Source of the DNA: Alphaproteobacteria bacterium
GTDB lineage: Bacteria > Pseudomonadota > Alphaproteobacteria > Rickettsiales > UBA8987
Assembly (NCBI GenBank): GCA_031426355.1
Contig: JANPLD010000118.1
Location: 3,477-67,476 of the forward strand
Length of the DNA stretch: 64,000 nt
Direction: 5' to 3'
Below the pieces are notes generated by a model that searched no databases, was not told the origin of the DNA, and saw only the letters and a program-made list of their open reading frames with translations. Below, in pieces: positions 2,879 to 45,246 of the stretch; position 1 is the first letter of the stretch; each line of letters begins with the position of its first letter. A program made the translations under genes and the position numbers.

Positions 2879-3673
2879 ATGACCTGCTATAATTCTTCCT
2901 TCGCAGATGCTTTTAACAACAAGGCAAAACCTGGATCAATTGCAGTATTCATGAATGATGGCGATGAGATATTTAATCCTATAAGGGCCTTCAATACGAG
3001 AAACGCCTTAAAAAAATACCTTAATTCCGAACTCCATTACGAAGCAGGATTTTCACCTTATGATTTTATGCTTGTATCACTGTTGGAAGGTGGTTTTTCT
3101 GACAGGATAATAAACCCTGAAGAAGATAGCAGTAAGATAATTGGCGTACCACAAATGGTCGTCGCAGGAAAAAACAAAGATGGCTCAGTTATAAACCCGC
3201 AATATCTGGCAAATATACGCCTGCATAATTTTAGATCCGGACAACCTCTATTCACCGAAGAAGAAATATTACGCTTAAAAACAAATCCGGTAATTCAATA
3301 TTTTAATAGCGATATTGAAACTGAAATAAAATTGGTCCAAAATACCCTTACGGCATATAATGACAATAACATCTCTGAGATTCTCCACGAAAAAACTACG
3401 CATTGGAGCCATATATCAAAATTCCTCGCCTTTTCAGTTGTAGCGCTTCCACCAGTTAACCTTAAGGAAAATACATTGGCCCTGAACATAAGGGCGGAAA
3501 TATTCTCTGACAAAAAAGTAACTCCTAAAGAAGATGCTATCCTTGAAAAAATTGATAACATGTATTTCTTCGACAGAAAAATAGATGATAAGGAAGCTGC
3601 TCAACTTCAAGAACTCAATAAAAGCCTGTTGACACCACAATTCAAGGCAACTGACAAAAACCGCGGGAAGTAA
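2879..3673 (+). CDS. hypothetical protein (orphan); possibly the 3' part of a disrupted gene starting at 2680
   Basis: 264-aa ORF, no recognisable motif, no obvious SD; upstream frames 2680-2878 look coding but hold one in-frame stop and one frame change. Confidence 0.45.
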   Translation: MTCYNSSFADAFNNKAKPGSIAVFMNDGDEIFNPIRAFNTRNALKKYLNSELHYEAGFSPYDFMLVSLLEGGFSDRIINPEEDSSKIIGVPQMVVAGKNKDGSVINPQYLANIRLHNFRSGQPLFTEEEILRLKTNPVIQYFNSDIETEIKLVQNTLTAYNDNNISEILHEKTTHWSHISKFLAFSVVALPPVNLKENTLALNIRAEIFSDKKVTPKEDAILEKIDNMYFFDRKIDDKEAAQLQELNKSLLTPQFKATDKNRGK

Positions 3674-9368: not shown

Positions 9369-10595
9369 TCAAAATGCTTTCGTGGGAACCTTTGTACCAG
9401 GAGACTTATTTTCCAGATTATAATTGTAATTTAAGTTACCAATTTGCCTGAGTGATAATGCTGTTTTTTGTATCTTGCTTATATCTTCGAGTGAAAGGTC
9501 TCCATCATTTCCAAATTGCTTCATTAAATTATCCATAACTTTCTGGATGGTTTTCTCTTCTTCCACATTTACGTTAGTGAAATCCTCATTATTAACTTGA
9601 TCGGCCCATCGCTTCCTTTGCAATTTCAGCAATTGCTCATTTGCATTGAAACAATTTTCAACTGGTGGCGCATCAAGTGTTTTAACACAGATCAGATCCT
9701 CAGGGCTAAATATCTCCGATACATCAAGTGAATAATTTTCAATAATAATTTTTGCCTCCTCTGGCGTGGTCTCCCCGGTAAAATCAGGCATAACCAGCTC
9801 ATCAAGTATAACACCATTCTTATTGGCAACAACCTGACGTATCTCTGGCAATTTATAGCCTATTGATATAGCCGATCTATAATTTTCAATATACCCGGTA
9901 TAAGTTACCGCGCTGAAAGGCTTCTCACCATACTGCATTGCTATATTTTCCAGATTGGCTTGCCCTCTATCATATCTAGCCTGACCGAAAATTCCCAAGC
10001 ATACCTCTGCAAACCCGTGAAGTTCACTCCTGATTTCCACAGGTATATTAGAATTTGTATAGATATTATATGCGCTGGTTCCTGAACCAAGGTCATATTC
10101 CGTTATTATATTTTCCTTAAGGTCCTGAAATTTATTATACCATTCTTTATGATAATATTGCCCGCCGTTTATAGTAACTGGTTGATTTGCCACCAGCAGG
10201 TAACTGATAAAATCTGCTGCATGTGCAACCTCATGGGCATTCAGGCCATTTTTTGTATATACCTGTATCTGGTTTTTTGAACTTATCCCATAATCCAGTG
10301 ATTCATTTTCTCTTAACTTTACAGAAAGAACAAACTCCGTACCGGGCGAAAACGTCTTACCACTCTCAGGCCCGGTATGAAGATTGATTTTCTTACGCAA
10401 TATAGGCTTTCCCGTATCCGCATCAATTATTACCCTAAACTTTGCAAGCTTTTCTATATGCAATTTATATTGCGGGATATTTTTCATATTCCACATCATT
10501 ACATCTTTATTATAAGCTCTTTCTGAAAGGTCTTCTATGTCTTCAAAATTGAAAACCGTTTTCAGCAATTCACTATCTGTTATCGGATCAGGCAT
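9369..10595 (-). CDS. hypothetical protein with HExxH motif (putative zinc metalloprotease, orphan)
   Basis: 408 aa; single HEVAH motif (NGLNAHEVAHAADF); no other family signature recognised. Confidence 0.45.
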   Translation of the reverse strand: MPDPITDSELLKTVFNFEDIEDLSERAYNKDVMMWNMKNIPQYKLHIEKLAKFRVIIDADTGKPILRKKINLHTGPESGKTFSPGTEFVLSVKLRENESLDYGISSKNQIQVYTKNGLNAHEVAHAADFISYLLVANQPVTINGGQYYHKEWYNKFQDLKENIITEYDLGSGTSAYNIYTNSNIPVEIRSELHGFAEVCLGIFGQARYDRGQANLENIAMQYGEKPFSAVTYTGYIENYRSAISIGYKLPEIRQVVANKNGVILDELVMPDFTGETTPEEAKIIIENYSLDVSEIFSPEDLICVKTLDAPPVENCFNANEQLLKLQRKRWADQVNNEDFTNVNVEEEKTIQKVMDNLMKQFGNDGDLSLEDISKIQKTALSLRQIGNLNYNYNLENKSPGTKVPTKAF

Positions 10596-12292: not shown

Positions 12293-13327
12293 GTGACTAA
12301 TAAAACTGAACATTTGGATAATCTTGAAAAACTAAACACCATTTTCAATCGGGTATTTAGAACCCACGAAGACGAGAGCGGTCTATATTACGTTACAATG
12401 GCACGTTTTGTTGTGCCACAAGGATTATGGGCCATTGATGAAGCCAAAAACAAATTTACATCATTAAACCCACCAAGTGATTATGAGACGGCTGCAAATT
12501 ATGGATTTTTAATAAGATTAAATATTGATGAACAAAAAAACGGCCTATTGAAAACTATTTTCAATGATAACCAAGTAACAACCTATCCATTTGTCGACTG
12601 TGAAACATATCCAAACTGTTACAATGGCGGGATGGCTTTACCTGTTGAACTTATTAATAAAACCGGTTTAGAAACCGCTTATCAAAGAACGCTTTTAGAA
12701 AAACAGCAAAACACTTTTAAGCCAATAGAATGGCAATATAATATTGATAAGCAAGTTGATCCAAAAGAAATAGAAAAAATTCCTGAATATATAAAACAAT
12801 GGGAAACAAAAATTTATCAGTTTAGATCAAAAGCCATTACTGATGGGTTTTACACAATTGATCCAGATACTGGAAAGGGATATTTATCTGTTTCAAAAGA
12901 TAAAGCCAAACCGCAAGATGCTGTTAAGGATTTAATTTCTAAGTTTCTATCTGGCAACGAAGAAATTAAACAGGTTGAAATAAAAATTTCAGAGATGCTA
13001 GAGTACGGAAAAAATAAAATTGAAATGCATCAGGAATTTCCAAGGGAATTTATCAAATCCTTTACAAAAGATCGGCTTCAAAAAGTAACTGATAGCCTTA
13101 TAGAAGTTTACAAACTGGTCTCATCAAAAGAAAAACCAGAAGCTGCAACCTATCAGGAACAACTTAAGAAAGCAGTTAACGATTTCACTGGAACTGTTAA
13201 AGAAGCAGGTAAAATGGTTTTTAAATCAAATACTGTAAAACAGCTAGATACCTATGCAAAAGAAATCACTGAAGCTTTAAATATAAATTTAGGCCAAAAA
13301 GGAAACGATAGGGCTCTTTATAATTAG
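12293..13327 (+). CDS. hypothetical protein (orphan), inserted antisense between gatC and gatA
   Basis: 344-aa ORF (GTG start in track), K/E-rich C-terminal helical half, no motif recognised. Confidence 0.5.
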   Translation: MTNKTEHLDNLEKLNTIFNRVFRTHEDESGLYYVTMARFVVPQGLWAIDEAKNKFTSLNPPSDYETAANYGFLIRLNIDEQKNGLLKTIFNDNQVTTYPFVDCETYPNCYNGGMALPVELINKTGLETAYQRTLLEKQQNTFKPIEWQYNIDKQVDPKEIEKIPEYIKQWETKIYQFRSKAITDGFYTIDPDTGKGYLSVSKDKAKPQDAVKDLISKFLSGNEEIKQVEIKISEMLEYGKNKIEMHQEFPREFIKSFTKDRLQKVTDSLIEVYKLVSSKEKPEAATYQEQLKKAVNDFTGTVKEAGKMVFKSNTVKQLDTYAKEITEALNINLGQKGNDRALYN

Positions 13328-13771: not shown

Positions 13772-14038
13772 ATGTATCCAAATATCATTCAGGATTTCAC
13801 CAATAACCATCCCGAATTTAAATTCAAGATACATTACCTAAAATATACTAACAAAGATATTTCTAAAATCTATTCCGAATCAAAACTTATTGAAAAGGAA
13901 ATAAACTACACTGAGAATTATATTGAAAATAGTAATTATGTTGAACGCCTCAAAGCAAGGCTAACTGAGCTAAGCGAAAACTTAAATACCTTAAGCATCA
14001 ATAAAACTTTACAAAAATCGCACGTAACATTACTATAA
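13772..14038 (+). CDS. hypothetical small protein
   Basis: 88-aa ORF with strong SD (aaggggg) 6 nt upstream and sigma70-like ttgcag-N17-tatgtt; no motif. Confidence 0.4.
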   Translation: MYPNIIQDFTNNHPEFKFKIHYLKYTNKDISKIYSESKLIEKEINYTENYIENSNYVERLKARLTELSENLNTLSINKTLQKSHVTLL

Positions 14039-14044
14039 TTGTTT

Positions 14045-14365
14045 CTAGAATTTATATCCAAGCCCGAGCAATACCGCTGGAGACATTCCATTCTTTGCTT
14101 CAGTACGTGTAGCTTCCACAGTATTTAATGAAGCCTTTTCAATTTGGTCATCATTACGTTTGAAGCCCATATCCATACCGATGGTCCAGCCATCATTGAT
14201 CACATATCCTAAATTAGCCCCCACTGCTTTAGAACCTGCGCCGGCTGTTAGATAAGCATTATCAATTAGCTCTTTACTGCTTAATAATTTAATATTTTCT
14301 GCAGAAGCGCCGGATACATTTATAAATGTCATCACAGCTGCCAAGATTAAAAAAGACTTTTTCAT
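14045..14365 (-). CDS. small secreted outer-membrane-like protein
   Basis: 106 aa; signal peptide MKKSFLILAAVMTFINVSGASA, C-terminal LGLGYKF aromatic terminus typical of OM beta-strand proteins. Confidence 0.5.
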   Translation of the reverse strand: MKKSFLILAAVMTFINVSGASAENIKLLSSKELIDNAYLTAGAGSKAVGANLGYVINDGWTIGMDMGFKRNDDQIEKASLNTVEATRTEAKNGMSPAVLLGLGYKF

Positions 14366-14550: not shown

Positions 14551-15159
14551 CTAGGCAATAGCGCGGTTTCCCTCGTCTGAGACCAGTTTTTTGATCTTAT
14601 CGGTTACCGCATCAATTGACTTGGTTCCGTCAATCTCAGCATGGAGGTTCTTCTTTTTATAGTATGGCAGAACAGGCGCCGTCTGCTCCCAGTACGTTTT
14701 CAAGCGCTTGGTAAACACTTCCGGGTTATCATCAGGACGCGGCTCCTCACCTTTGGCAAGCGCCTCATTTTTTCTCTGTTCGCTTCTGCTTTTCAGTGCT
14801 TCATCAGGAACTTTTATCTCAATGACTATATCAATTTTCTTATGCTGCTCAGAAAGCATTTTATCCAGAGCCTCTGCCTGCGCAACTGTACGCGGGAAAC
14901 CATCCAGCATGAAACCCTGCTTACAATCCGCATGCGATATCCTGTCAGCTATCATTCCAATGATTATATCATCAGAAACCAAACCACCTTCTTTCATTAT
15001 TACTTCTGCCTTTTGCCCAAGCTCAGTTTTTTCAGCCACTGCCGCGCGAAGCATGTCTCCCGTAGAAAGCTGTGGAATTCCCAATATTCCCTTCAGTATG
15101 TTTGCCTGCGTTCCCTTACCTGCTCCCGGTGGTCCAAATAAAATAATATTCTTTGTCAT
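14551..15159 (-). CDS. adk: adenylate kinase
   Basis: 202 aa; P-loop GPPGAGKGTQ, GFMLDGFPRT; downstream of secY as in alphaproteobacterial spc operons. Confidence 0.95.
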   Translation of the reverse strand: MTKNIILFGPPGAGKGTQANILKGILGIPQLSTGDMLRAAVAEKTELGQKAEVIMKEGGLVSDDIIIGMIADRISHADCKQGFMLDGFPRTVAQAEALDKMLSEQHKKIDIVIEIKVPDEALKSRSEQRKNEALAKGEEPRPDDNPEVFTKRLKTYWEQTAPVLPYYKKKNLHAEIDGTKSIDAVTDKIKKLVSDEGNRAIA

Positions 15160-15178
15160 TCGATAATAGTTAGTTAAA

Positions 15179-15237
15179 AGTTTGAGATCTGAAGCTGAAA
15201 GAAGTTATAATAATCTTCAAACTTCCAACTTCAAACT
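15179..15237. repeat. palindrome with heptad-array arms (TTGAAG/CTTCAAA family) in secY-adk spacer
   Basis: Left arm agtttgagatctgaagctgaaagaag, right arm cttcaaacttccaacttcaaact; right arm is the reverse complement of the array at 51744-51767. Confidence 0.6.
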
Positions 15238-15241
15238 AAAT

Positions 15242-16603
15242 CTACCTTTTTCTTCTTCCACCTTTCATACTGGTCTTCTTGAGAAGCCCTTCATACTGAT
15301 GCGCAATTAAATGGGAATGTATCTGCGCGATAGTATCCATAGTAACATTCACCACGATTAAAAGCGAAGTACCACCAAGATAGAACGGCACACTATATTT
15401 GGCAATAAGCAATTCCGGTATCACACATAGAATTGATAGATACGCCGCGCCCAGAACAGTTATACGGTTCATTATATAAGTGATATAATCCGCCGTATTT
15501 TTCCCCGGCCTGATCCCCGGTATAAACCCACCGTTCTTTTTCAGGTTCTCTGCAGTTTCGGTTGGGTTGAACACATTACTCATATAGAAGAAACAGAAGA
15601 ACGTTATCAGCACAACATACATAAATATATAAAGCGGCTTTCCATGCCCGAGATAAAGATTTATCGCCTGTAATATCTCATTCTCAGAACCACCCGTTCC
15701 CATTGAAAACCCCGATATCGTTGCAGGGAATAACAATAGTGAAGATGCGAATATCGGAGGTAACACACCAGCAGTATTTAATTTTAGTGGCAGATAAGTA
15801 TTCTCACCCTGGTATTGCTTATTACCAACTGTTCTTTTCGGATATTGCACTATCAGCCTGCGTTGCGCCCTTTCCATAAATACTATGAATGCTATCAGCG
15901 CCGCTATAAGCACAACTATCAGGATAATGAATGTAGTTGAGATAGCGCCCGTTCTGCCAAGCTCAAAAGTTTTTGAGATAGCAGAAGGTAAGTTCGCCAC
16001 GATACCTGCAAATATGATCAGTGATATCCCGTTGCCGATACCTCTGGAAGTTATCTGCTCACCGAGCCACATCAGGAACAATGTTCCGCCGATCAGGGAT
16101 ATAACTATCGTTACTGTAAATAATACTCCCGGATTTAACACCGCGGTCTGCCCGTCCAGATTAATGGATTGCAGATATGAAGCTATACCATAACCCTGAA
16201 TACCCGCCATAAACACCGTACCAACACGTGTATACTGCTGTATCTTCCTTCTACCTGCCTCACCGCCATCCTTACGTAACTGGCTAAGCGCCGGATACAT
16301 CACTGTTACCAGCTGCACTACAATTGATACCGTGATATAAGGCATAACGTTAAGTGCGAATATGGTCATACGGCTAAGCGCGCCGCCTGAGAACATATCA
16401 AATATACCAAGTATGCCCTGCGAATGCATTTCAAACATTCTGTTAAGCACCCTTGAATCAACACCCGGGAGAGGAATATAAGTTCCTAAACGATATACAA
16501 GTAAAGCCCCGAGAACGAACAGAAGCCTTTTTTTGAGTTCCTGAGCCTTACCAAACGCGGAAAGGTTTATATTGGAAGCCATTTTTTCAAAACTGGAAGC
16601 CAT
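15242..16603 (-). CDS. secY: preprotein translocase subunit SecY
   Basis: 453 aa, 10 TM pattern, GALSRMTIFALNVMPYIT, GIGNGISLIIFAGIV. Confidence 0.95.
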   Translation of the reverse strand: MASSFEKMASNINLSAFGKAQELKKRLLFVLGALLVYRLGTYIPLPGVDSRVLNRMFEMHSQGILGIFDMFSGGALSRMTIFALNVMPYITVSIVVQLVTVMYPALSQLRKDGGEAGRRKIQQYTRVGTVFMAGIQGYGIASYLQSINLDGQTAVLNPGVLFTVTIVISLIGGTLFLMWLGEQITSRGIGNGISLIIFAGIVANLPSAISKTFELGRTGAISTTFIILIVVLIAALIAFIVFMERAQRRLIVQYPKRTVGNKQYQGENTYLPLKLNTAGVLPPIFASSLLLFPATISGFSMGTGGSENEILQAINLYLGHGKPLYIFMYVVLITFFCFFYMSNVFNPTETAENLKKNGGFIPGIRPGKNTADYITYIMNRITVLGAAYLSILCVIPELLIAKYSVPFYLGGTSLLIVVNVTMDTIAQIHSHLIAHQYEGLLKKTSMKGGRRKR

Positions 16604-16716
16604 TTTATGGTATTTATTAGTGGTTATTACGGCTACATTGAATCCGCATATTTCGCTTGGGTTCTAAACGAAAAAAACATATGAATAAATAGAAATTTAC
16701 AAAATAAATACAAGCT

Positions 16717-16748
16717 TTAACGTTTTGTTAACCAAGATTATGTATATT
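16717..16748 (+). promoter_or_regulatory. CtrA-type box plus -10: TTAA-cgttttg-TTAAC-caagattatg-TATATT
   Basis: Perfect TTAA-N7-TTAAC, N10, -10-like hexamer ending 22 nt before ATG 16771 (SD aggaaa). Confidence 0.6.
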
Positions 16749-16770
16749 CTAATAAAATAGTCAGGAAATC

Positions 16771-17832
16771 ATGATACCTAAACAACCTACCGAACTAGAA
16801 AGTAATTTTCCAAAAGTTGCTAGCGCCTATAATAAGGTAAGAGAAGAACTTTATGACAGATTAAATAGCAATATGCTAAAACCTGCTGATTGGCAATTTC
16901 CCGAAATAAAAGTAGATTTAGATTTTAAATATGGCTCAACTTTTATCCCCTCAAAAAATCAAATTACTTTTTCTGGTCCAGCAGCACTTAACATGGATGA
17001 AAAAGCCATTTACGAATATATAAAAAATACAGCAATCTATTCACAAAAATTTCCTTCGGTATTTAAGGCTTATGAGAGAGCTATTAACTACACTTTAGAG
17101 AACTTACATAAAATCCCTAATAGAAGAAAGGATTGGGAGCCACCCAGATTAAATTTTACATATGAATATAATCCTGCTGGATATTCCCCGGGGGCAAACA
17201 TAATACACTTCTGCACACAAGATGCAGCAATAGGAGATAAAGATTCTACATATCACAAGTTTTGTCATGAAATTAGACATAGCCTTAATAAAATACCTTT
17301 TTTAGAAAAATTATTAGCTTCCAGAAAAACTGACACAGCTTTTAGAGCTACGGCAGTAGGATTATCACTAGCCGCAGGATTATATGCAAAAATGACTGGC
17401 CAAAATGTAGCTAGTTCATTTTCGCTAATGGCATTTTCAACTACCGCACTTTATAATTATTTTAATATTGCAAAATCACTAATGATACCTTCAGATTACA
17501 TAACAAAATCCAAAGGTAATAGAGTAGAAATTGAATGTGACACTTTTTCTGCAAATGATATATCAACTGCAAATGCCTTTATTCAACTACCACATTCCAA
17601 AGGTACCATAGGAGAAACAAAACCGATAATTGAAAATCTACCACAGGCTATAAAAATATGTTCCGAACTTTATTTACAGCCAGATTATTTAAAAAAACCA
17701 AGAAAACAAAATTTACTTCAAAATTTAGGGTTAGCGCCTTTTAAGCCAAAAAGTCATCCTTCCGAGGCAACTAGGTTTAGAAATATTATAGAAACTATAA
17801 CCTCTCAAGAAAACCCAAATATACAAAGATAA
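16771..17832 (+). CDS. M48-like zinc metallopeptidase (divergent), inserted antisense between rplO and secY
   Basis: 353 aa; HEIRH (HExxH), two hydrophobic segments, then NRVEIECDTFSA (compare M48 SRxxExxADxxA third-ligand motif) ~85 aa downstream and C-terminal SHPSEATRF (compare M48 sHPp...R); N-terminal internal duplication (ADWQFPEIK / KDWEPPRLN). Confidence 0.6.
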   Translation: MIPKQPTELESNFPKVASAYNKVREELYDRLNSNMLKPADWQFPEIKVDLDFKYGSTFIPSKNQITFSGPAALNMDEKAIYEYIKNTAIYSQKFPSVFKAYERAINYTLENLHKIPNRRKDWEPPRLNFTYEYNPAGYSPGANIIHFCTQDAAIGDKDSTYHKFCHEIRHSLNKIPFLEKLLASRKTDTAFRATAVGLSLAAGLYAKMTGQNVASSFSLMAFSTTALYNYFNIAKSLMIPSDYITKSKGNRVEIECDTFSANDISTANAFIQLPHSKGTIGETKPIIENLPQAIKICSELYLQPDYLKKPRKQNLLQNLGLAPFKPKSHPSEATRFRNIIETITSQENPNIQR

Positions 17833-17854
17833 TTACTAACAAATCTAAACAAAA

Positions 17855-17886
17855 ATCCCCGCCACATCATTAAAATGGGCGGGGAT
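17855..17886 (-). terminator. Rho-independent-type hairpin directly after rplO (and after the convergent M48-like gene)
   Basis: 9-bp GC-rich stem atccccgcc / ggcggggat, 14-nt loop; on the minus strand followed by tttttgttt. Confidence 0.65.
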
Positions 17887-17912
17887 TAAATTCTGTTCAA
17901 AAGAAAAACTAA

Positions 17913-18569
17913 CTATTTCTTCTCAGCTTTTGGCTTTATTGATTTAGCTTTTACAGGTCTTTTAGCTTTAGCAACCTTCGGGCCAGATTTAACACCTTCA
18001 GCTTTCGGTTCAGTCTTAGCTTTTACTGCTTTCACTTTAGGAGTTTTTCTTACTTCTTTCCTTTCAGCTTTTTTAGCTTCTTTTTCTTCTTTAGTATCGT
18101 AAACTTTGCCTGATGGCATCAATATCTTTCCACCTGCTTTCTCAACTGCTGCTTTAGCAGATTCAGATGCTTTACAAACTGATATTTCGATTTTAGATTT
18201 AAGTTCACCGCCGCCAAGAAGTTTAATTCCTGTAAGTCTGTTCTTAGTTAAACCTGCTGCTTTCAAAGTATCAGCATTTATTCCAGCTGCCTGAAGTTTA
18301 CCCGCATCAATTGCATTCTGTATGTCAGACAAGCTAACTACTTCAAATACTTTAGCAGAGAAATTATTAAAACCTCTTTTAGGAAGCCTTCTATGTATAG
18401 GCGTTTGACCACCTTCAAAACCTTTGATCGCAACACCTGAACGTGCAGTCTGGCCTTTACCGCCTCTGCCGCAAGTTTTACCTTTACCGGAACCTATTCC
18501 GCGGCCAACTCTCATCCTTCTGTGAGCCGAGCCCTGATTTCCAACTAATTTATTTAATGTAAATGTCAT
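17913..18569 (-). CDS. rplO: 50S ribosomal protein L15 with ~70-aa Lys/Ala-rich C-terminal extension
   Basis: 218 aa; N-terminal RVGRGIGSGKGKTCGRGGKGQ; tail EEKEAKKAERKEVRKTPKVKAVKAKTEPKAEGVKSGPKVAKAKRPVKAKSIKPKAEKK. Confidence 0.95.
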   Translation of the reverse strand: MTFTLNKLVGNQGSAHRRMRVGRGIGSGKGKTCGRGGKGQTARSGVAIKGFEGGQTPIHRRLPKRGFNNFSAKVFEVVSLSDIQNAIDAGKLQAAGINADTLKAAGLTKNRLTGIKLLGGGELKSKIEISVCKASESAKAAVEKAGGKILMPSGKVYDTKEEKEAKKAERKEVRKTPKVKAVKAKTEPKAEGVKSGPKVAKAKRPVKAKSIKPKAEKK

Positions 18570-27542: not shown

Positions 27543-27866
27543 TTACGCTGCCTCCTGCATCACTTCTACATACACTTCAACACCTGCAGGCAGATCAAGT
27601 TTGCCGAGCGCGTCTAATGTCTGTGGGTTAGTATCTATAATGTCTATTAGTCTTGAATGAGTTCTGATCTCTAACTGCTCGCGTGAGATCTTATCAATAT
27701 GCGGGCTTCTGTTAATTGTAAATGTTTCCCTGGTACGCGGAAGAGGTATTGGCCCCCTCGATACTGAACCAGTTCTTCTTACCGTATCAACAATTGAACG
27801 CGCAGATTGGTCTATCAACCTGTGGTCAAATGCCTTGAGTTTAATTCTTATTTTCTGTCCAAGCAT
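27543..27866 (-). CDS. rpsJ: 30S ribosomal protein S10
   Basis: 107 aa; [18 protein letters not shown]. Confidence 0.96.
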
Positions 27867-28042: not shown

Positions 28043-28843
28043 TTAGAACTTTACCCTCACACCCGCATCAAGTGCAAGCGGAACAGGAGATAATTTTGTT
28101 ATCCTTTCATCAGCATTTGAGCCATTCTGCGCATAATATTCGGCTCCAAAACCAGCCATTGCGGAGATTGCGCCGGATAACGCAATATTATCGGTCACAT
28201 CAAATTGCACACCTAATTTTTCTTTGAAATTCACCGGACTCATCTTGAATTGATGTGATTTATCTGCACCAATTTCAGACCTTTCATTATTAAATATATA
28301 AGCAAAATTAGATTCAGTATATATGCTAAACCGCTCCGAAATATCCTTTTCAAGCCTGATATCAAGCAGCATCGTCGGCATAACGAATTTTTCTAACTTA
28401 TCATTTAAAAAATCAGTATTATTTTTCATTATGGTCACTCCACCCGATATAGAACCGGAAATAGCTATATCTGACCTATCGTTTTGAGACCTTATCCCGC
28501 CGCCAACCGCCATAACCATCATTTGCTCCGGCCTGCCGGTATTTTCTACATTAGAGCTTGAATTTACAAAAAACCCATCATTTACGCCTCTTACATGAAC
28601 TTCGAACAACCCTTGAACAAAGAAAATATTATCACTACGGCTACTAAAATTATATTTAAGGCTTAAATTACTTATTGGCGTCTGCCCGCCCGCCCTGAAG
28701 TTTTCCTCCCTGATAGGAACTAATCCGCCTGAATCCAGCGAATAACCATATACACGCTGCGTAATATCAAATGGTTTCCCAAGAAAGAAACTATTATAGT
28801 TTGAAAGTTCAAAACCAGCGCCTTTATTATGTTTATCCGGCAT
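28043..28843 (-). CDS. outer-membrane beta-barrel-like protein without recognisable signal peptide (autotransporter-beta-like paralogue of 4928-6244 C-terminus)
   Basis: 266 aa; alternating-strand pattern, C-terminal ALDAGVRVKF; shares SPVNFKEK and terminal-strand motifs with ORF 4928-6244; N-terminus MPDKHNKGAGFEL is not a signal peptide. Confidence 0.5.
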   Translation of the reverse strand: MPDKHNKGAGFELSNYNSFFLGKPFDITQRVYGYSLDSGGLVPIREENFRAGGQTPISNLSLKYNFSSRSDNIFFVQGLFEVHVRGVNDGFFVNSSSNVENTGRPEQMMVMAVGGGIRSQNDRSDIAISGSISGGVTIMKNNTDFLNDKLEKFVMPTMLLDIRLEKDISERFSIYTESNFAYIFNNERSEIGADKSHQFKMSPVNFKEKLGVQFDVTDNIALSGAISAMAGFGAEYYAQNGSNADERITKLSPVPLALDAGVRVKF

Positions 28844-28887: not shown

Positions 28888-30084
28888 TCAAAGCAATTCA
28901 ATTTCTTTGCTAACCCCTAACACTTCCGCCATTGCCGAGGCTTTTATCATAGTTTCCTGCCATTCAGATTCAGGGCTGCTGTCATATACTATCCCCCCGC
29001 CAACCTGAAATTCAAATTTATTCCCTTGGATTATAATAGTTCTTATCACTACAGAAAACTGACAGATATCTTCATTTATCAACCCCAATATACCGCTATA
29101 TATTCCTCTTTTTATACCCTCCAACTCAGAGCATAATTTCATCGCCTGTATCTTTGGCGCTCCTGTCATGGAACCGGGTGGAAAAATAGCCTTTATCAGG
29201 TCAAAACTGGTATTGCCCTCCTTCAACTTTCCAACAATAGTTGAATGCATATGGGAAATATTCTTGAATGAGGAAGTTTCAAAAAGCCCCCTTACCTTAA
29301 CACTTCCAGCCTCGCAGGCACGCGCAAGATCATTACGCATCAAATCAGTTATCATCAGATTCTCTGACTGGTCCTTACCGCTGACTGAAAGCTCACCCTG
29401 CGCCCCTGCCCTTGCAGAGCCTTTTATAGGGCATGTTACCGCATTACCTTCACCATCAACCTTTAAAAACAATTCCGGGCTTGATGAAATTATATAAGTC
29501 TCGCCAACTTTATAAAACACACTATACGGCGCTGGGCTAAGAACAGATAACTTTGCAAATAATGCAAATGCATTAACATCACCTTCAAACTCTCCATAAA
29601 ATTTCCGCGTAAGGTTCGCCTGATAAACATCACCACGCTCAATTCTCCCTCTTATAGTTTTAATTTTATCAAGATACTCCGCCTTACTCATATCAGAGCG
29701 CACATATTTCACTTCCGGCTTTTTATAATTCCCAGCAGAATATTCAGATAATATTTTCTGTAATTCTCCCGGCTCATAATTTTCTTTTTGAGAAAACTCG
29801 GAAAAATTTACATCATCATTTTTTATAAAAAAATCTTTATCCTCGGGAAGTTTTTCCAGTTTATTTTTAAGCCCATAACCAAGCCACCCAAAAAGATATT
29901 TACCTCTGCTATTTTTTATTTTCTTTTCTAGAACATCAAGATCACTACCGCGAACTAAATCATTTTCATCACTTAACAGAAATGAATTCTTATCACTATA
30001 AGGCACGAACTTACCCGTATGCAGCAACGCAAAATTTTTATCTGATGATATTAAATTTTTTATATTTCTCATTTTTCCGGTCAC
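28888..30084 (-). CDS. pabB: aminodeoxychorismate/anthranilate synthase component I family (short PabB-like)
   Basis: 398 aa; chorismate-binding domain motifs SSPELFLKV, CPIKGSA, PPGSMTGAPK, GIYSGILG, VGGGIVYDSSPESEWQET; start codon uncertain. Confidence 0.75.
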   Translation of the reverse strand: MTGKMRNIKNLISSDKNFALLHTGKFVPYSDKNSFLLSDENDLVRGSDLDVLEKKIKNSRGKYLFGWLGYGLKNKLEKLPEDKDFFIKNDDVNFSEFSQKENYEPGELQKILSEYSAGNYKKPEVKYVRSDMSKAEYLDKIKTIRGRIERGDVYQANLTRKFYGEFEGDVNAFALFAKLSVLSPAPYSVFYKVGETYIISSSPELFLKVDGEGNAVTCPIKGSARAGAQGELSVSGKDQSENLMITDLMRNDLARACEAGSVKVRGLFETSSFKNISHMHSTIVGKLKEGNTSFDLIKAIFPPGSMTGAPKIQAMKLCSELEGIKRGIYSGILGLINEDICQFSVVIRTIIIQGNKFEFQVGGGIVYDSSPESEWQETMIKASAMAEVLGVSKEIELL

Positions 30085-32386: not shown

Positions 32387-32851
32387 CTAACAACCTGCTA
32401 AACAAACATTTTTTTGATTCTTAGCAGCTTCTAACCTATCATCTGCTACAGTTTTACAAATGGTTCTTTGCTCTAAAGTTTGCGCATTGTTCAAACAATT
32501 TTTCTTTTCATCATTAATAGTCTTTTTTTGAACTTCGAAAGCAGCATTACATGCTGAGGTACAAGCTTTAAATGCGACTACACAATTTTTCTTACATTGC
32601 TTCGCTTCATCTTCCGCACTTTTAATGGCTATTTTTGCTACAGCTTTACACGCGCTTTTCTGCTCTGGAGTAGTTGCTGACTGAAGACATGCATCTCTTT
32701 GAACTTTTGCCGCATTTTTTTTAGCATCCAAGGCCATATTACAGTTTAATTTACAGGCTTCGCTGTTTGAACCACCGCCATTCTGCGCAAGTGCAATACC
32801 TGAATATGACATAGCAATAGTAAAGCTTATTAGTGTGATTAATTTTTTCAT
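32387..32851 (-). CDS. secreted Cys-patterned tandem-repeat protein
   Basis: 154 aa; signal peptide MKKLITLISFTIAMSYSGIALA; two copies of CX3C-x17-CX12C-x17-CX3C. Confidence 0.55.
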   Translation of the reverse strand: MKKLITLISFTIAMSYSGIALAQNGGGSNSEACKLNCNMALDAKKNAAKVQRDACLQSATTPEQKSACKAVAKIAIKSAEDEAKQCKKNCVVAFKACTSACNAAFEVQKKTINDEKKNCLNNAQTLEQRTICKTVADDRLEAAKNQKNVCLAGC

Positions 32852-34537: not shown

Positions 34538-36694
34538 CTAATCTTTATCTTTAACTTTATCCTTGTCTTTTGCAGGGATCTTTCTTCCGCCGCCAACCCT
34601 TTCAACTACCGGGCCGGAATTCATACTGGTAAAGAACTCATCATTGGTTTTTGTCTCACGTATCTTCTCCATCAGGAACTCCATTGCGTCCATAGAACCC
34701 ATTGGGGAAATGATTTTACGTAATATCCAAACTTTCTGCATCTCACCTTCATCATAAAGAAGTTCTTCATGACGCGTGCCTGAACGAAGTATATCAATAG
34801 CCGGGAATATTCTTTTATCAGCAAGCTTACGATCAAGCACAACTTCCGAGTTACCTGTACCTTTGAATTCCTCGAATATCACCTCATCCATTCTTGAACC
34901 AGTCTCAATAAGAGCTGTCGCAATGATCGTCAGTGAACCGCCATTCTCAGTATTCCTTGCTGCACCGAAGAATCTTTTCGGCCTTTGAAGCGCATTCGCA
35001 TCCACACCACCTGTAAGTACTTTACCAGAGGATGGCACAACGGTATTATAAGCACGCGCCAGCCTTGTGATCGAATCAAGGAGGATAACAACATCCCTAC
35101 CATGCTCTACAAGCCTGCGGGCCTTCTCAATAATAAGTTCTGCTAACTGTACGTGGCGTGTTGCCGGCTCATCAAATGTCGAGCTTACAACTTCACCTTT
35201 TACCGTACGCGTCATATCCGTAACCTCTTCCGGGCGCTCATCTATCAGAAGAACAATAAGGTCAACTTCCGGATGGTTAGTTTCAATTGATTTCGCGATC
35301 GTTTGCAGAAGTACCGTTTTACCTGAACGAGGAGGCGCCACAATCAAAGCCCTTTGCCCTTTTCCAAGCGGAGAAACAAGGTCAATAACGCGCGCTGCAT
35401 TATTATTCTTATCAGTGCTAGGCAATTCCATCTTGAGTTTTTTATCAGGATAAAGCGGCGTCAGATTGTCGAAATTCGTCTTTTTGCCAAGCCTTCCATG
35501 AAGGTCAATACCATTAACACTTTTAATCCTTGTTAATGCGAAATACCTCTCACGCAATTTTGGCGCACGCACCTCACCTTCAACCGTGTCACCAGTCCTA
35601 AGCGAAAATCTTTTCACCTGATTTGGCGATACATAAACGTCATCAGGACCAGCACGGTAATTATATTCTCTCGAACGGAGGAACCCGAAACCATCAGGCA
35701 TTATCTCTAAAACACCTTCAAATATAACAATACCTTCCTGCTGCTCCATCATCACGCGGAGTATGTGGAAGATAATTTCCTGCTTAAGCATGAAGTTTGA
35801 ACCTTCAATACCAGCTTCACGGGCTAATTCTATCAGCTCTTCCGCAGGTTTTGATTTAAGGTCTTTCACGAATAATGTCGGAACATCCTTCGCTTGTGTA
35901 AATCCGCCTTCAGCATCTTCACCATTATCATCTTGTGGTGGTACGAAATCAGGCGCCTTACCCGCTACAGAATTAGAGATGTAATCATACTCATTATTCA
36001 TTGGCGGAACCGCGCTACCTGATACTATTGCCGGGTTCACATTTGGATCCATCGCCTCAGGATTCTGGTTTGCATCAACCCTTACTGGCTGTGGCTGCCT
36101 TTCAAAACCGCCATCATTACCATTTTTCTCAGGCCTGTTATTGTCATATCTATCGTTATTACGATCATTATTGCGGTTATCATATCTACCGCCGCCTCTA
36201 TTATTATCATATCTGTCGTTACTATTACGGTTGTCATATCTTCCGCCACCGCCGCTATTATTCCTGTCGTTACGGTCATTTCTTCCCCTGCCACCGTTAC
36301 GGTCATTCCTGTCATTATTATTGCGATCGTTACGGAAATTATTCCTGCGAGGTGCGCCGTTATTATGCCCGCCAGAACCGCCGCCATTCCCTCTGTTGTC
36401 ATCACGGTTACCCCTTTCATAGCCACCGCCTTCACCTCTATCGCCCCTTACATCGCCTCGACCCTCAGCCCTCGTCCCGCCTTGGTTAGGTGCATTATCA
36501 CCATTACTTTCATTTGTAACTACCGGAGCCGCTTGAGCTACCGGAGCTGAAACTGCCGCCGATTGTACTGGAGCCGCCGCTGGAGCTTCTGGAGTTTGTA
36601 CCGAAACTGGTGCTGAAGCATCTGAGCTTCCTTGATCTTTACTTTCTTTCGCTGGAGTTTTACGCGCGGAAAGACCGAGTTTTTCTTCTGTCAT
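34538..36694 (-). CDS. rho: transcription termination factor Rho with ~270-aa low-complexity N-terminal extension
   Basis: 718 aa; canonical Rho from about aa 272 ([22 protein letters not shown]...PDGFGFLRS, Walker [10 protein letters not shown] loops); aa 1-270 Ala/Pro-rich then R/G/N/D-rich repeats. Confidence 0.95.
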
Positions 36695-36973: not shown

Positions 36974-38491
36974 TTAAGTAAGCTCCATACCCTTCTTCAA
37001 GGCTTTTTGCATATTCACTTCTCCATTAGATTTTTCCGAATTGATGGCTTTTATCGTATTTGAAAACTCACTTGCCAACCTGTTAAGCTCCTCTAACTGT
37101 TCCGGTGCCATTACACCCTCAAACATCTTTGGATGATCTTTTAAAAACTTCTCAATTTCCTCAATTTTATAAATGCATGGGCAATAACTTCTCATCTCTT
37201 CACCATTCCGCAGATCATAAGATTCAGGTAATTGCTGCTCAAATATATGCTGGAATTTAACTTTTCTTTTTTCTCCACCGCCATCAATATCAATTCCTTC
37301 CTCTTTCACTTTGTATAAAATAGCTTGAAAAAGCTTCTGAAATTCACGCCTGAACTCCTCATAGTTATGAATATCAGGCTTTATACTTTCCAAATATTCA
37401 TAACCTTTTATATAAAGCTCCTGGGACTTCTTATTTAATTTATCAAAATTATCATTGAATTCCTTACTATCACCACCAGGTTTAATCTTATCAAAAATTG
37501 TTTGAATATCATGTATGCCATCACCATCTTTTTCAGGGATGGACTTCACAACTTTATTGATAGTTTTATCTAATTTATACATGAACTCCAAAAGCTCATG
37601 CGGGTAAAAATAACTTCTTTTTTTAAAATTTTCCTGATCATTAATTTTACTAGGTTCAAAATCTTTAAATACTTTTTTAAAGTTTTCCTCCCATATTTTT
37701 TCAGGATTATTTATTAAATCATGAACGGCAATTTCTTTTAATTCTATCTTGCCATCAATTTCTTTATGATGTTTTTTGTAATATTTATTTATATCTTTAA
37801 GTGCTTCTTTTGAATTTTCCTCAAAGCCTTTCCCTAACTGCCTCACTTTATCAAATCGTTCCTGGAAATTTTCAGGAAAATAAAATCTGGTTGCTTCGTT
37901 TTCATGGGCCTTATCTATGACAGACACCATATTTATATAGCCATCATCAATTACTATATAGCGGTCTGCAAATTTATATAATTGGTTTTCAGCACCTATG
38001 CTTCTATTAGGATCAACGAAGGAATATCTTATAGGTACATCCCACCTTTCAGATTTATAAGGACGATTATTATTTATATGATCAGTAATCTGCTGGGATA
38101 GATTAGATTTTAATCCGGATATTTCCTCCGAAAGTTTATTGGCAGAGCTTAATAAAGATTCCTCTGACATTATCTTCATAACATCTCCCGCAGGCATAGA
38201 TATTAATGTTTCAAAAAATTGTTTTTGATCTTTATCCATCCATGAATTGATATTCCCTGAAGAATACTTAGCTAAAAGCACATCTCTTTCATCAGGCGTC
38301 ATTTCATTCTTAAAAACGGCATCATATGTATGATATTGCTCAAAAAAAGTGTCATAAGTATAGGGGTTTGTGATTACTTCCTTAATATATTTCTGCGGAT
38401 CAGTTTTCCAGAGTCCGTTAGGTTCATGCTCTTTATCATATTGCAGCCTTTGAGCTGCGGCTTTAATTATATCTAATGGCGTAACAGGCAT
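36974..38491 (-). CDS. hypothetical protein (orphan, 505 aa, K/E-rich helical)
   Basis: Long ORF with SD (aagggg) and own box promoter; no motif recognised. Confidence 0.55.
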   Translation of the reverse strand: MPVTPLDIIKAAAQRLQYDKEHEPNGLWKTDPQKYIKEVITNPYTYDTFFEQYHTYDAVFKNEMTPDERDVLLAKYSSGNINSWMDKDQKQFFETLISMPAGDVMKIMSEESLLSSANKLSEEISGLKSNLSQQITDHINNNRPYKSERWDVPIRYSFVDPNRSIGAENQLYKFADRYIVIDDGYINMVSVIDKAHENEATRFYFPENFQERFDKVRQLGKGFEENSKEALKDINKYYKKHHKEIDGKIELKEIAVHDLINNPEKIWEENFKKVFKDFEPSKINDQENFKKRSYFYPHELLEFMYKLDKTINKVVKSIPEKDGDGIHDIQTIFDKIKPGGDSKEFNDNFDKLNKKSQELYIKGYEYLESIKPDIHNYEEFRREFQKLFQAILYKVKEEGIDIDGGGEKRKVKFQHIFEQQLPESYDLRNGEEMRSYCPCIYKIEEIEKFLKDHPKMFEGVMAPEQLEELNRLASEFSNTIKAINSEKSNGEVNMQKALKKGMELT

Positions 38492-41791: not shown

Positions 41792-41827
41792 AATTTATCT
41801 AAAATATAAAAATTAATCCCTCTCCTT

Positions 41828-41960
41828 CTTACGGGAGAGGGTTGCGAAGTCTTGCTTTCACAAGAAAGCTAGACGAAGCTGGGTGAGGGTTCATAGTTAA
41901 TAATAACACCACCCCTCACCCTAACCCTCTCCCACAAGGGAAGAGGGAAATAGATTTCTA
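41828..41960. repeat. REP-like cluster of GC-rich hairpins (GGGAGAGGG / GGGTGAGGG motifs)
   Basis: ccctctcc-ttcttac-gggagaggg; gctttc-acaa-gaaagc; gggtgaggg...ccctcaccc; ccctctccc-acaa-gggaagaggg; GC-rich island in AT-rich spacer. Confidence 0.75.
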
Positions 41961-41994: not shown

Positions 41995-43692
41995 TCACGC
42001 CCCATTGAAAAATATCTGGAATTTCTCATAAGTCGTAAGCGTAATATCATTTCTTTCAAATTCAAAATCTGCGCTTTTCATCTTCTGTAGATATTTCGCA
42101 TAAACCTTCGCCATAAGCATGGCAGGTTTCATATTCTGCTTTTCTTCTTCAGGCAAAAGGTTTAACGCCGAATATAATGACTTTTCTGCTTCAGCCGCCA
42201 TTTCCGCAAAAACCCCCTTCAAGCGCGGCAGGTAAGATTTATAATCCAGCGAAAGCTCAAATGGCTTCAGAACAAGGAAATTATATTTCACTGCTAGTTC
42301 TTTCGGTACATATATGCGGCCCATCCTCGCATCCTCTTCCACATCGCGCAGGATATTTATCAGCTGCAAACCACGTCCAAGTTTTATCGCAAAATCAAAA
42401 ATAACCTGTGAATTCTTTTCATTATAACCAAATATCCTTGTCGATGCCACACCCACACACCCTGCCACATTGAAGCAGTATTTATCCAGCACCCCCCATT
42501 CCGGGAAGAACATTTTCCCGCTAATGTCCATTATCTGCCCGTTTATAACATGCAGCAGGTAATTTTTATGTATGTCATATTTTTTACATATCAGGTTCAC
42601 TTCCCTGATCAGCGGATGCCTAGGATAAGTATCATAATCCAGACTATCGATATTATTGGTCTGCGCAAAAAACTCCCTCAGTGTTTCAGTAGGGTTATGG
42701 CTGGATTCCTTATCGGCAAAATCATCAACTCTTTTACAGTACGCGTAGAATGAAAGCACATCATGCAGCCTTTCACCTTTCATGGTCTTGAGTGGTTTTA
42801 TGAAGGAACTACCAGCCGTTTCCGCCAGAACCCTTGCCATTTTAAGCGGCGCTGTTTTTATGATTGCAAAATATAAACCTTTCGCCAAACAGAATAATTT
42901 TTCAAACTTATTAAGCTCAACCCTTTTCTTCAGAACATCATTCTTACGCAGCTTCCATATAAGCAACTTACATATCTCAACTATAGTAAATAATTCCGCA
43001 CGCACCCTGAAAGATAATATCTTCTCCGGAAAATTCTTAGCCCTATCAAGCATTTCTTGAATTCTATCCAGAACTTTTCCTTTACCTTCCTTTACCTCAT
43101 AACACTCTTTATCCTGCAAAAATTTCTCACGGTTCGGAAAAAACGACCTATCAAAATAAACCCTTTTCAGATTTATATAATCACTTTTTAGATCCTGCAA
43201 ATGATTAAGTAATTGCAGCGTCATACATATCTTATCAGCCTTCTCTATATCGCAGTCAAATTCATGCGTTGCCTCTAAAAACAATTTGCCGATACTTGCC
43301 GCTGAACGATCACAATATTTAAGTGTATCTTCCCATGAATTATATTCCCTGAAGATATTACAATCTTCAATAAAAGCTTCAAGCAGGCCTACACCGCTCC
43401 TTACATCGAACACACCTTTGTTACACAACCTTGAAAATTCTATGGCAAAGTCAGGCAGCTCTGCTTCATTTTTATTTTTTAATGACTCAAGTAATTTTAC
43501 CAGTATCGCCTGGCTATGTATCCTAAAACCATTAGGGTTATCCGCTATCTCATCTGCGCTTCTTGCAAAATTATATAAAGCGCGGATCGGTTTCCTGCTG
43601 CGCTTCGGCACGAGTAAACTCGCCACCGGAAAATTTTCTGACTTCCTGAATATATTCAGTTTTTTGATATCTTTGATATCACTTAATTTCAC
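41995..43692 (-). CDS. fused double squalene/phytoene-synthase-fold protein (HpnC-like N-domain + HpnD-like C-domain)
   Basis: 565 aa; N-half ENFPVAS...YNFARSADEIAD...LQDLKSD; C-half SSFIKPL...YCKRVDDFADK...LRDVEEDARMGRIYVP; both Asp-rich motif pairs present. Confidence 0.75.
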   Translation of the reverse strand: MKLSDIKDIKKLNIFRKSENFPVASLLVPKRSRKPIRALYNFARSADEIADNPNGFRIHSQAILVKLLESLKNKNEAELPDFAIEFSRLCNKGVFDVRSGVGLLEAFIEDCNIFREYNSWEDTLKYCDRSAASIGKLFLEATHEFDCDIEKADKICMTLQLLNHLQDLKSDYINLKRVYFDRSFFPNREKFLQDKECYEVKEGKGKVLDRIQEMLDRAKNFPEKILSFRVRAELFTIVEICKLLIWKLRKNDVLKKRVELNKFEKLFCLAKGLYFAIIKTAPLKMARVLAETAGSSFIKPLKTMKGERLHDVLSFYAYCKRVDDFADKESSHNPTETLREFFAQTNNIDSLDYDTYPRHPLIREVNLICKKYDIHKNYLLHVINGQIMDISGKMFFPEWGVLDKYCFNVAGCVGVASTRIFGYNEKNSQVIFDFAIKLGRGLQLINILRDVEEDARMGRIYVPKELAVKYNFLVLKPFELSLDYKSYLPRLKGVFAEMAAEAEKSLYSALNLLPEEEKQNMKPAMLMAKVYAKYLQKMKSADFEFERNDITLTTYEKFQIFFNGA

Positions 43693-44466: not shown

Positions 44467-45246
44467 ATGTTAAATGAATTTTTACCAGCTATTGGCACTC
44501 AGCAACAAATGCAAGGCTTAGAAGAGAGAGTACCAAAAGAAATAAAAGGAAAAATATTGCAAGATATTATGAATTCTTCACCCGAAGAATTGCAATCTCT
44601 AAAAACTGCATCAGAAAAACTTTACAATCAGCTTTTACAAATATTAGTAGATGGTACTGACCCAAATGAAGGACCTAACGCATATCGCACACCAGGAACT
44701 GATGGATATTGGCCACCTGATCTTAGAAAATATTTAAATAGTTATACTGAAAGGCATCCCGAAGCAGATGACTGGTTAAAAAATTTAGCTTTATCATCAA
44801 TAAAAGACTATTTTGATCCTTATGAAAAATTAAAAAATAAAGCTTGGGAACTTGAATATACATTAAACTATATAAAAGCAGAAAGTATCATAAGGCACGA
44901 AAACTTTCAGGTTTATAGTGAAATTGAATTTGCTAAACCAGAAATGAGAGAAGAACTGGAGAATTTATTAGAAAACATTTCTATTGAGGGTAAAAATAAG
45001 CCTATTCCTTATGAGAAACTGGAATCTTACGCACATACTACATTATTACAAAAAACAGTTGATAAAGAAACACCTTATATAATCACAAATGAAGAGTTTG
45101 AAAGCGCACAATCAGAACTAAAACAATTTGGTCTAACTTTAGAAAAATATATAGTTGATCCCTCTAAAAACGAAGGATCAATCACCGTATTCAGAGGCGG
45201 TATACCTATAGATGAGAGAAAAGATGTGGCATTTAGCAAGCAATAA
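44467..45246 (+). CDS. hypothetical protein (orphan)
   Basis: 259-aa ORF with SD (aaggga); no motif recognised. Confidence 0.5.
   Translation: MLNEFLPAIGTQQQMQGLEERVPKEIKGKILQDIMNSSPEELQSLKTASEKLYNQLLQILVDGTDPNEGPNAYRTPGTDGYWPPDLRKYLNSYTERHPEADDWLKNLALSSIKDYFDPYEKLKNKAWELEYTLNYIKAESIIRHENFQVYSEIEFAKPEMREELENLLENISIEGKNKPIPYEKLESYAHTTLLQKTVDKETPYIITNEEFESAQSELKQFGLTLEKYIVDPSKNEGSITVFRGGIPIDERKDVAFSKQ

Follow-up and report, generated by a model that had tools for sequence, protein, structure and literature searches.

A lineage-restricted gene for a putative gluzincin lies antisense in the rplO-secY junction of an alphaproteobacterial genome

In the canonical spc operon layout, rplO is followed by secY on the same strand, with neither a gene nor a terminator between them. 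This layout is not found in the 64,000-nucleotide stretch of contig JANPLD010000118.1 analysed here (the window). The S10-spc ribosomal-protein cluster runs along the minus strand from rpsJ (27543..27866) to rplO, and secY and adk come next, but an antisense gene and a hairpin sit between rplO and secY. What is this gene, how did it come to be there and how is secY now read? An original prediction, made by a model from the sequence, had placed rplO and secY about 1.3 kb apart with a plus-strand open reading frame (ORF) of 353 amino acids (aa) between them. The gap measures 1309 bp and the ORF, which we call ORF353, is as described. We think it probable that ORF353 is a functional, fast-evolving and clade-restricted gene for an M48/M56-like gluzincin, relocated into the rplO-secY spacer.

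The size of the gap was compared with that in other genomes. At the alphaproteobacterial loci recovered with SecY, the distance from the end of the rplO match to secY was between -15 and 315 bp (78 of 78). A relative of ORF353 was encoded at none of these 78 rplO-secY loci. Five closer relatives, with SecY 72-75% identical, all have rplO and then secY at a spacing of 25-30 bp. The adjacency that the original prediction stated for almost all bacteria is thus borne out at these alphaproteobacterial loci. The 1309-bp gap is exceptional among the alphaproteobacterial loci compared, and the broken junction is restricted to the small clade of uncultured, Rickettsiales-like bacteria to which the window belongs.

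ORF353 is a real gene, and lineage-restricted. It is genuine because 353 codons stay open at 32% GC and because 84 columns are invariant across three homologous genes, ORF353 among them. The ATG is preceded by an AGGA Shine-Dalgarno sequence, 6-10 nt upstream. The gene (GC 0.324; GC at third codon positions, GC3, 0.19) is AT-richer than core genes and in this resembles the window's other ORFs without a Pfam match. Among 5.8 billion proteins, a word-indexed search returned only the query itself. With phmmer, run exhaustively on 1.84 billion representatives, three matches were accepted: P0122 (362 aa, 42% identity), P0123 (264 aa, 41%) and P0125 (100 aa, 47%). One other phmmer match, P0124 (2380 aa, E 2e-14), was rejected; its score is the sum of 15 near-identical repeats of 2-9 bits each.

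P0125 and P0123 come from a single gene, in GCA_964445765.1, that a frameshift inside a (TA)n run has split. The run encodes IYIYIYI and lies at about 7985-8010 of contig L087; the split is also seen in L088 and L089. Possible explanations are an error of assembly, slipped-strand phase variation and decay to a pseudogene. Thus, the family has three members in three metagenome-assembled genomes (MAGs). A profile search, and a scan of JGI metagenomes with the family alignment, found no further members. ORF353 has no paralog elsewhere in the window, the neighbouring orphan ORF (12293..13327) included. PADLOC defence models returned no match.

The three pieces of an M48 signature that the original prediction had picked out are present in the right order, invariant in the family and collinear with M48. 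They are HEIRH (residues 166-170), NRVEIECDTFSA (250-261) and SHPSEATRF (328-336). Residues H166, E167, R169, H170, E253, E255, C256, D257, F259, H329, P330 and R335 do not vary among the three members, and the family-wide consensus reads HE[IL]RH, E[IL]ECD.F and HP....R. We built an M48 profile from Escherichia coli HtpX, BepA, LoiP and YcaL and aligned the family to it with hhalign. The alignment scored 31.2 (E 0.0017) over 109 columns, with HEIRH on HEISH and EIECD on EFHAD. None of 400 column-shuffled controls reached this score (mean 13-14, maximum 23.9). A permissive extension, of low confidence, also placed SHPSEATRF on THPPLDKRI. Taken singly, all four E. coli M48 proteins register at HExxH; SprT/YggI, RseP (M50) and FtsH (M41) do not. 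With BlaR1 as a single sequence, only the 15-residue Glu motif aligned (EIECDxF with E242VEADRF), and not above its null. E253 is a putative third zinc ligand, as its motif is invariant and aligned with HtpX E222FHAD. Taken together, the motifs, their collinearity and a sub-threshold profile match make an M48/M56 affiliation plausible, short of membership in a curated family.

The fold was examined using AlphaFold2. A single-sequence model was discarded (predicted local distance difference test, pLDDT, 35), and a four-row alignment was used instead. Residues 7-175 were then modelled confidently (pLDDT 76-92). HEIRH falls within a helix at residues 157-172 (pLDDT about 76-81), after strands at 126-130, 137-139 and 144-148. 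In the model, the putative active-site helix is thus preceded by a beta-sheet subdomain, as in M48. The zincin fold class is well indicated.

The N-terminal part of the protein is duplicated. Residues 13-85 align with residues 94-165 at an hhalign probability of 95% (E 3e-8, score 44.9; shuffle maximum 18.8), and cross-matches between the two modules are seen between family homologs. In the AlphaFold2 model both modules begin with a helix, go on with three strands and close with two more helices, a short and then a long one. The original prediction had noticed two 9-mers of a duplicated module; the repeat proves far longer, at about 72 residues. The place that HEIRH takes in module 2 is held by YEYIK in module 1, and by YIYLS or YIYIY in the relatives. 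Since module 1 has no HExxH and module 2 ends in the HEIRH helix, we read the protein as a predicted pseudo-protease/protease tandem, i.e. a dead copy of the zincin N-subdomain followed by a putatively live one. The core after the dead copy would run from the N-subdomain ending in the HEIRH helix, through an amphipathic helical hairpin, to the EIECD glutamate helix and HPxxxxR, with the EIECD helix supplying the third zinc ligand. Coordinates are collected in Table 1.

Table 1. Positions in the window of the genes, protein motifs and intergenic features of the rplO-secY locus. Residue numbers are those of the ORF353 protein.
Feature	Position	Strand	Basis
ORF353	16771..17832	+	353 codons, antisense between secY and rplO
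Module 1, residues 13-85, predicted degenerate copy of zincin N-terminal subdomain	16807..17025	+	hhalign against module 2; pLDDT 76-92
Module 2, residues 94-176, predicted zincin N-terminal subdomain (backing helix, three strands, active-site helix)	17050..17298	+	AlphaFold2 model; E. coli M48 proteins in register
HEIRH, residues 166-170, putative zinc-binding/catalytic motif	17266..17280	+	aligns with HtpX H139EISH143
Two amphipathic helices, residues 185-237, putative re-entrant membrane-associating hairpin	17323..17481	+	AlphaFold2 helices 185-209 and 214-237
EIECD, residues 253-257, putative third zinc ligand Glu plus Asp	17527..17541	+	aligns with HtpX E222FHAD and BlaR1 E242VEAD
HPSEATR, residues 329-335, M48-type C-terminal HPxxxxR motif	17755..17775	+	on HtpX THPPLDKRI in extended hhalign alignment
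Conserved element CTTTAACGTTTTGTTAACCA, palindrome TTAAC-N5-GTTAA	16716..16735	+	upstream of the gene in all three genomes
Intrinsic-terminator-like hairpin between convergent rplO and ORF353	17854..17887	-	U-tract on minus (rplO) side
rplO (L15), last gene of truncated spc operon	17913..18569	-	Pfam Ribosomal_L27A on identical Logan contig
secY 5' spacer, new	16604..16715	-	homologous to 94 bp upstream of secY in L091
secY	15242..16603	-	ORF list
adk	14551..15159	-	same strand as secY, 3' of secY
secY-adk, detached from rplO	14551..16603	-	SecY 84-86% identical to nearest relatives

The original prediction also placed two hydrophobic segments between the first two motifs. Two helices do exist there, at residues 185-237. 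They are weakly hydrophobic and amphipathic, and a transmembrane (TM) reading of them is unsupported. Their Kyte-Doolittle maxima over 19 residues are 1.01 and 0.88, with values up to 1.55 in the homologs. For comparison, the maxima are 1.75-2.66 for the TM helices of HtpX and 2-3.5 for SecY. The pair is placed where HtpX has TM3/4 and where MecR1 has a re-entrant helix, between HELSH and EKVCD. That MecR1 helix is amphipathic and lies between HE205LSH and E245KVCD, with H204, H208, E245 and D249 as putative ligands (PMC6925264). The hairpin of ORF353 may likewise dip into the membrane. ORF353 has no signal peptide, no lipobox and no true TM helix, and its N-terminus is not hydrophobic (maximum 1.01 on the same scale). 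The protein would hence be cytoplasmic or a monotopic protein of the inner membrane.

Several observations weigh against reading ORF353 as a functional M48/M56-like enzyme. Searches of Pfam, NCBIfam and the PDB sequences with ORF353 gave nothing even at E<=10, and the family profile matched no PDB sequence. Peptidase_M48 (PF01435) matched none of ORF353, P0122, P0123 and P0125 at E<=10. Peptidase_M56 (PF05569) matched P0123 alone among the family, and below threshold (E 0.0012, 18.6 bits, cutoff 31). Thus, by the refuting condition that the original prediction itself had set, its M48 assignment obtained no significant match. The hhalign probability against the M48 profile was only 15%. The C-terminal half of the AlphaFold2 model, including the Glu and HP motifs, has pLDDT <50, and a Foldseek search of PDB gave no match with E<=0.001; all Foldseek E-values were at least 0.04. 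The confident part of the model is thus the N-subdomain, and the position of the third ligand is predicted from the sequence. The family alignment holds three sequences only, one of them frameshifted. Since ORF353 has diverged furthest in the family, at 41-42% identity to two members that are 52% identical to each other, relaxed constraint is possible. Finally, a sigma-70 scan identified a promoter for neither ORF353 nor secY.

Could ORF353 be a zincin of another kind? It may belong outside M48/M56, to a SprT/WLM-, IrrE/ImmA- or effector-type (M91-like) group, with ExxCD and HPxxxxR arisen by convergence or coincidence. We regard this as a possible but distinctly less probable account. It draws on the other sub-threshold Pfam matches of P0123, which are to SprT-like (E 0.021), PhageMetallopep, DUF6782 and Peptidase_M91, all of them zincin metallopeptidases. 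The top ten Foldseek matches in PDB are almost all minigluzincins (selecase, jannalysin, abylysin; probability to 0.97), together with IrrE. Lower in the list are LTA4H, SPRTN, the M48 protein 3c37 (E 3.6) and BlaR1 8exr. Against BFVD, Foldseek returned SprT-like, IrrE-like and M48 proteins, the last at E 0.19. The matches to IrrE/PprI, SPRTN and MATCAP in PDB, and the many to SprT-like and IrrE-like proteins in BFVD, have E-values like those of the M48/M56 matches, and the confident part of the model is only the N-subdomain, common to all zincins. However, SprT/WLM proteins require a His six residues after HExxH, in the form HExxHxxxxxH. No His occurs at +6 after H170, which is followed by SLNKIPFLEK. 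The failure of E. coli SprT, RseP and FtsH to register at HExxH, where all four M48 proteins do, also speaks for M48. In addition, the HtpX alignment that beats 400 shuffles covers both HExxH and the Glu motif, and a helical hairpin between these two motifs is a feature of M48/M56.

The preferred M48/M56-like reading was set beside known systems. ORF353 resembles M48 (HtpX, Ste24/ZMPSTE24, BepA, LoiP, YcaL) in that HExxH, E-x-x-[AC]-D and HPxxxxR[IVF] follow one another in the same order and at roughly the same spacing. It shares with M48 a helical hairpin between the first two motifs, at the position of HtpX TM3/TM4, and a beta-strand plus helper helix before HExxH. Unlike M48, it lacks a curated model match, a signal peptide, a lipobox and true TM helices; it has an extra, dead duplicate of the N-subdomain and has Cys for Ala in ExxAD. 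That Cys is found in M56 (BlaR1/MecR1), in MecR1 E245KVCD, as is an amphipathic re-entrant helix between the motifs (PMC6925264). M56 also gave the best Pfam match of the family, to P0123 (E 0.0012), and BlaR1 8exr is among the Foldseek matches. However, the match falls short of the gathering score, and no other member gives one. ORF353 also has neither the three N-terminal TM helices nor the penicillin-binding sensor domain of M56, and no repressor partner gene lies near it. The minigluzincins (selecase, projannalysin, proabylysin) are small soluble zincin scaffolds and the top structural matches (TM-score 0.45-0.52 by target length). In contrast to ORF353, they have a third His instead of Glu (PMC6925264), are about 110 residues long and have no inserted hairpin, and E is only 0.1-0.8.

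A further reading is that the protein is no longer an enzyme, being a decaying or repurposed pseudo-protease, or that the gene is heading for loss after its relocation. A dead copy of a protease subdomain already makes up half of the N-terminus, the homolog in GCA_964445765.1 is split by the frameshift in its (TA)n run, and ORF353 combines the strongest divergence in the family with the lowest GC3 in the window. Nonetheless, we judge loss of function unlikely. In spite of the AT-rich DNA, the frame stays open for all 353 codons, and a good Shine-Dalgarno sequence precedes it. Furthermore, the candidate ligand and catalytic residues H166, E167, H170, E253, D257 and H329 are invariant at an overall identity of about 40-50%.

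How did the gene reach this junction? In both relatives, the family gene has a divergent thiolase gene on one side and mutS, in the same direction as itself, on the other; the sequence at the contig edge of L086 was identified as the thiolase 5' end. The window holds neither a thiolase nor a mutS gene. Since both relatives have the gene between thiolase and mutS, the rplO-secY location of ORF353 is derived. An upstream element of 18-20 nt, 36-43 nt before the ATG, is common to all three genomes despite their differing neighbours. Hence the gene would have moved with its own upstream control region, of about 55 bp, from the thiolase-mutS site into the rplO-secY spacer, antisense to its new neighbours. 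A mobile-element signature was sought around ORF353 as flanking direct or inverted repeats, and only short AT-rich chance repeats were found.

The fate of secY was followed in the nearest genomes. In the closest named genome, GCA_033762595.1 (Rickettsiales bacterium, SecY 84% identical), secY-adk lies behind an amine-oxidase gene near bolA-gatC, away from rplO. The nearest relative, L091, is a 1544-bp Logan contig with SecY 86% identical. The 94 bp that precede its secY show homology to the spacer of the window as far as the contig reaches, and no rplO 3' end is encoded in them. The new secY spacer is thus kept in L091. For this operon cluster, Brandis (2021) describes a two-step pattern of insertion and then disconnection, with secY outside spc in a single species (PMC8046335). 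The insertion in the window genome and the detached secY-adk in the sister MAG would fit this pattern. As in that pattern, a small insert breaks a conserved adjacency and the flanks are fully apart in a sister lineage. Unlike there, the break is inside the spc operon (rplO/secY) and not between operons, and the insert is one antisense gene plus a terminator.

We also considered an assembly artefact, i.e. a chimeric join within the spacer at 16604-16770. Here the ends of two short, independent Logan contigs lie 7 bp apart: L081, identical to the window, starts at 16715, and L091 ends at the equivalent of 16708. These ends fall where the spacer on the secY side gives way to the conserved element before ORF353, and the join of the secY side to the ORF side is seen only in the 79-kb source contig. 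The paired ends could reflect graph branching in AT-rich sequence or structural polymorphism. Contig breaks are, however, common in AT-rich spacers, and the ORF353-rplO-rpmD side is exactly reproduced in an independent assembly. In L091 secY is also behind a long spacer and not behind rplO. In the closest MAG secY is likewise away from rplO, so the broken junction is a property of the clade. An artefact is, on this evidence, the least credible of the explanations that we weighed.

We next turn to transcription of the relocated gene's neighbours. The original prediction placed a GC-rich hairpin with a minus-strand T-tract after rplO. Such a hairpin is found at 17854-17887, with a perfect 10-bp stem (7 GC pairs) and a 14-nt loop. 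The RNA of the rplO strand has a folding energy of -29.6 kcal/mol (z = -6.4), a stability that none of 200 shuffles attained, and UUUUUGUUU comes after it. Read on the plus strand, the structure is less stable (-22 kcal/mol) and has a poor tail. No other perfect GC-rich hairpin in the 64-kb window is as strong; a standard terminator scan passed over this one because the 14-nt loop is above the limit of that scan. The sequence has the features of an intrinsic (Rho-independent) terminator, and we consider it a predicted one. It would end the rplO transcript, and the ORF353 transcript less efficiently. Any read-through past the hairpin would run untranslated and antisense through 1 kb against the convergent gene. 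Because rplO transcription would end at the hairpin, and because read-through would be untranslated and antisense, secY-adk would need a promoter of its own, in or near 16604-16770. Separate transcription of secY-adk is a reasonable inference.

The 16604-16770 region was scanned for sigma-70-like sites. No plus-strand site had at least 9 of 12 matches; the best by eye is TTGTTA-17-TCTAAT. The perfect box promoter that the original prediction gave to ORF353 is thus not supported. The sole minus-strand match of the scan near secY is CTGACT-16-CATAAT at 16764-16737. Scans of the window for Rfam families and tRNAs found nothing.

Two side observations concern the genes on either side. RplO in the window has 218 aa, of which about 60 form a Lys/Ala-rich C-terminal tail (17913-18100, minus strand) that short AGCTTTT-type repeats encode; in four closer relatives it has 186-202 aa. 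The SecY N-terminus reads MASSFEK-MASNIN (16573-16606) and derives from a 13-nt direct repeat, TGGAAGCCATTTT, present twice, 21 nt apart. The start of secY is doubled in L082 too (MASSFEKMASNIN), and L091, as far as read, has the same MASSF opening. Hence the doubling is old. The second ATG, at 16582, may be the true start.

The head-to-head arrangement of ORF353 and secY invites a bolder proposal. HtpX and FtsH, as Sakoh and co-workers reportedly found in 2005, police SecY and membrane proteins in E. coli. Overlap between HtpX and FtsH, and removal of uncomplexed SecY by FtsH, are described elsewhere (PMC8767453). By analogy, ORF353 might found a new zincin family, with a dead and live subdomain tandem and an M48/M56-like core, whose position opposite secY is no accident. 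Its product would act on the Sec translocon or its clients, and would be co-regulated with secY via the shared 167-bp divergent region with TTAAC-N5-GTTAA. We hold this to be very unlikely.

Read as we prefer, ORF353 is a divergent gluzincin with a pseudo-protease duplicate and the locus is an operon break by gene insertion. Current understanding is unchanged by either. The locus offers a snapshot of the highly conserved rplO-secY adjacency as it breaks, with an antisense gene and predicted terminator here and secY-adk removed in the sister lineage. It would extend the insert-then-disconnect model, drawn from sites between operons in Gammaproteobacteria and Bacilli, to a within-operon site in an alphaproteobacterial clade. 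The family is invisible to Pfam and NCBIfam. It keeps an M48/M56 catalytic signature in a protein predicted to be soluble or monotopic, with a dead N-subdomain duplicate, and could serve as a minimal, tractable model of a membrane-embedded gluzincin core.

Elsewhere in the window, 11 of 30 longer ORFs scanned had no Pfam match, and 10 of those 11 are AT-richer than core genes (GC 0.28-0.39 vs 0.38-0.46). They include the ORFs at 2879-3673, 9369-10595, 12293-13327, 13772-14365, 32387-32851, 36974-38491 and 44467-45246. This suggests a large lineage-specific gene set in the window organism. One of them, the opposite-strand 344-aa ORF at 12293..13327, takes the place between gatA and gatC that a HepT/MNT toxin-antitoxin pair holds in the closest MAG (L082 1212-1837). 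No tuf gene precedes the S10 operon; what lies upstream of rpsJ is a Pfam-less 266-aa ORF (28043..28843, minus strand) and a gene for a chorismate-binding enzyme (28888..30084, minus strand). Because non-tuf genes precede the S10 operon, the str/tuf-S10 link seems to be broken too in this genome (27543-30084).

The rho gene of the window (34538-36694, minus strand) encodes a Rho of 718 aa in which Rho_N starts at residue 278, leaving an N-terminal extension of about 277 residues that has no Pfam match. Besides the hairpin after rplO, the window has just one more perfect GC-rich hairpin between genes, at 41818-41841. It has an 8-bp stem and a minus-side T-rich tail, and from its sequence is a probable terminator. 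It lies 3' of the SQS_PSY gene, a squalene/phytoene-synthase ORF (41995-43692, minus strand) of 565 aa. SQS_PSY matches two stretches of this ORF, so its product may be an HpnC/HpnD-like enzyme that is fused or duplicated.

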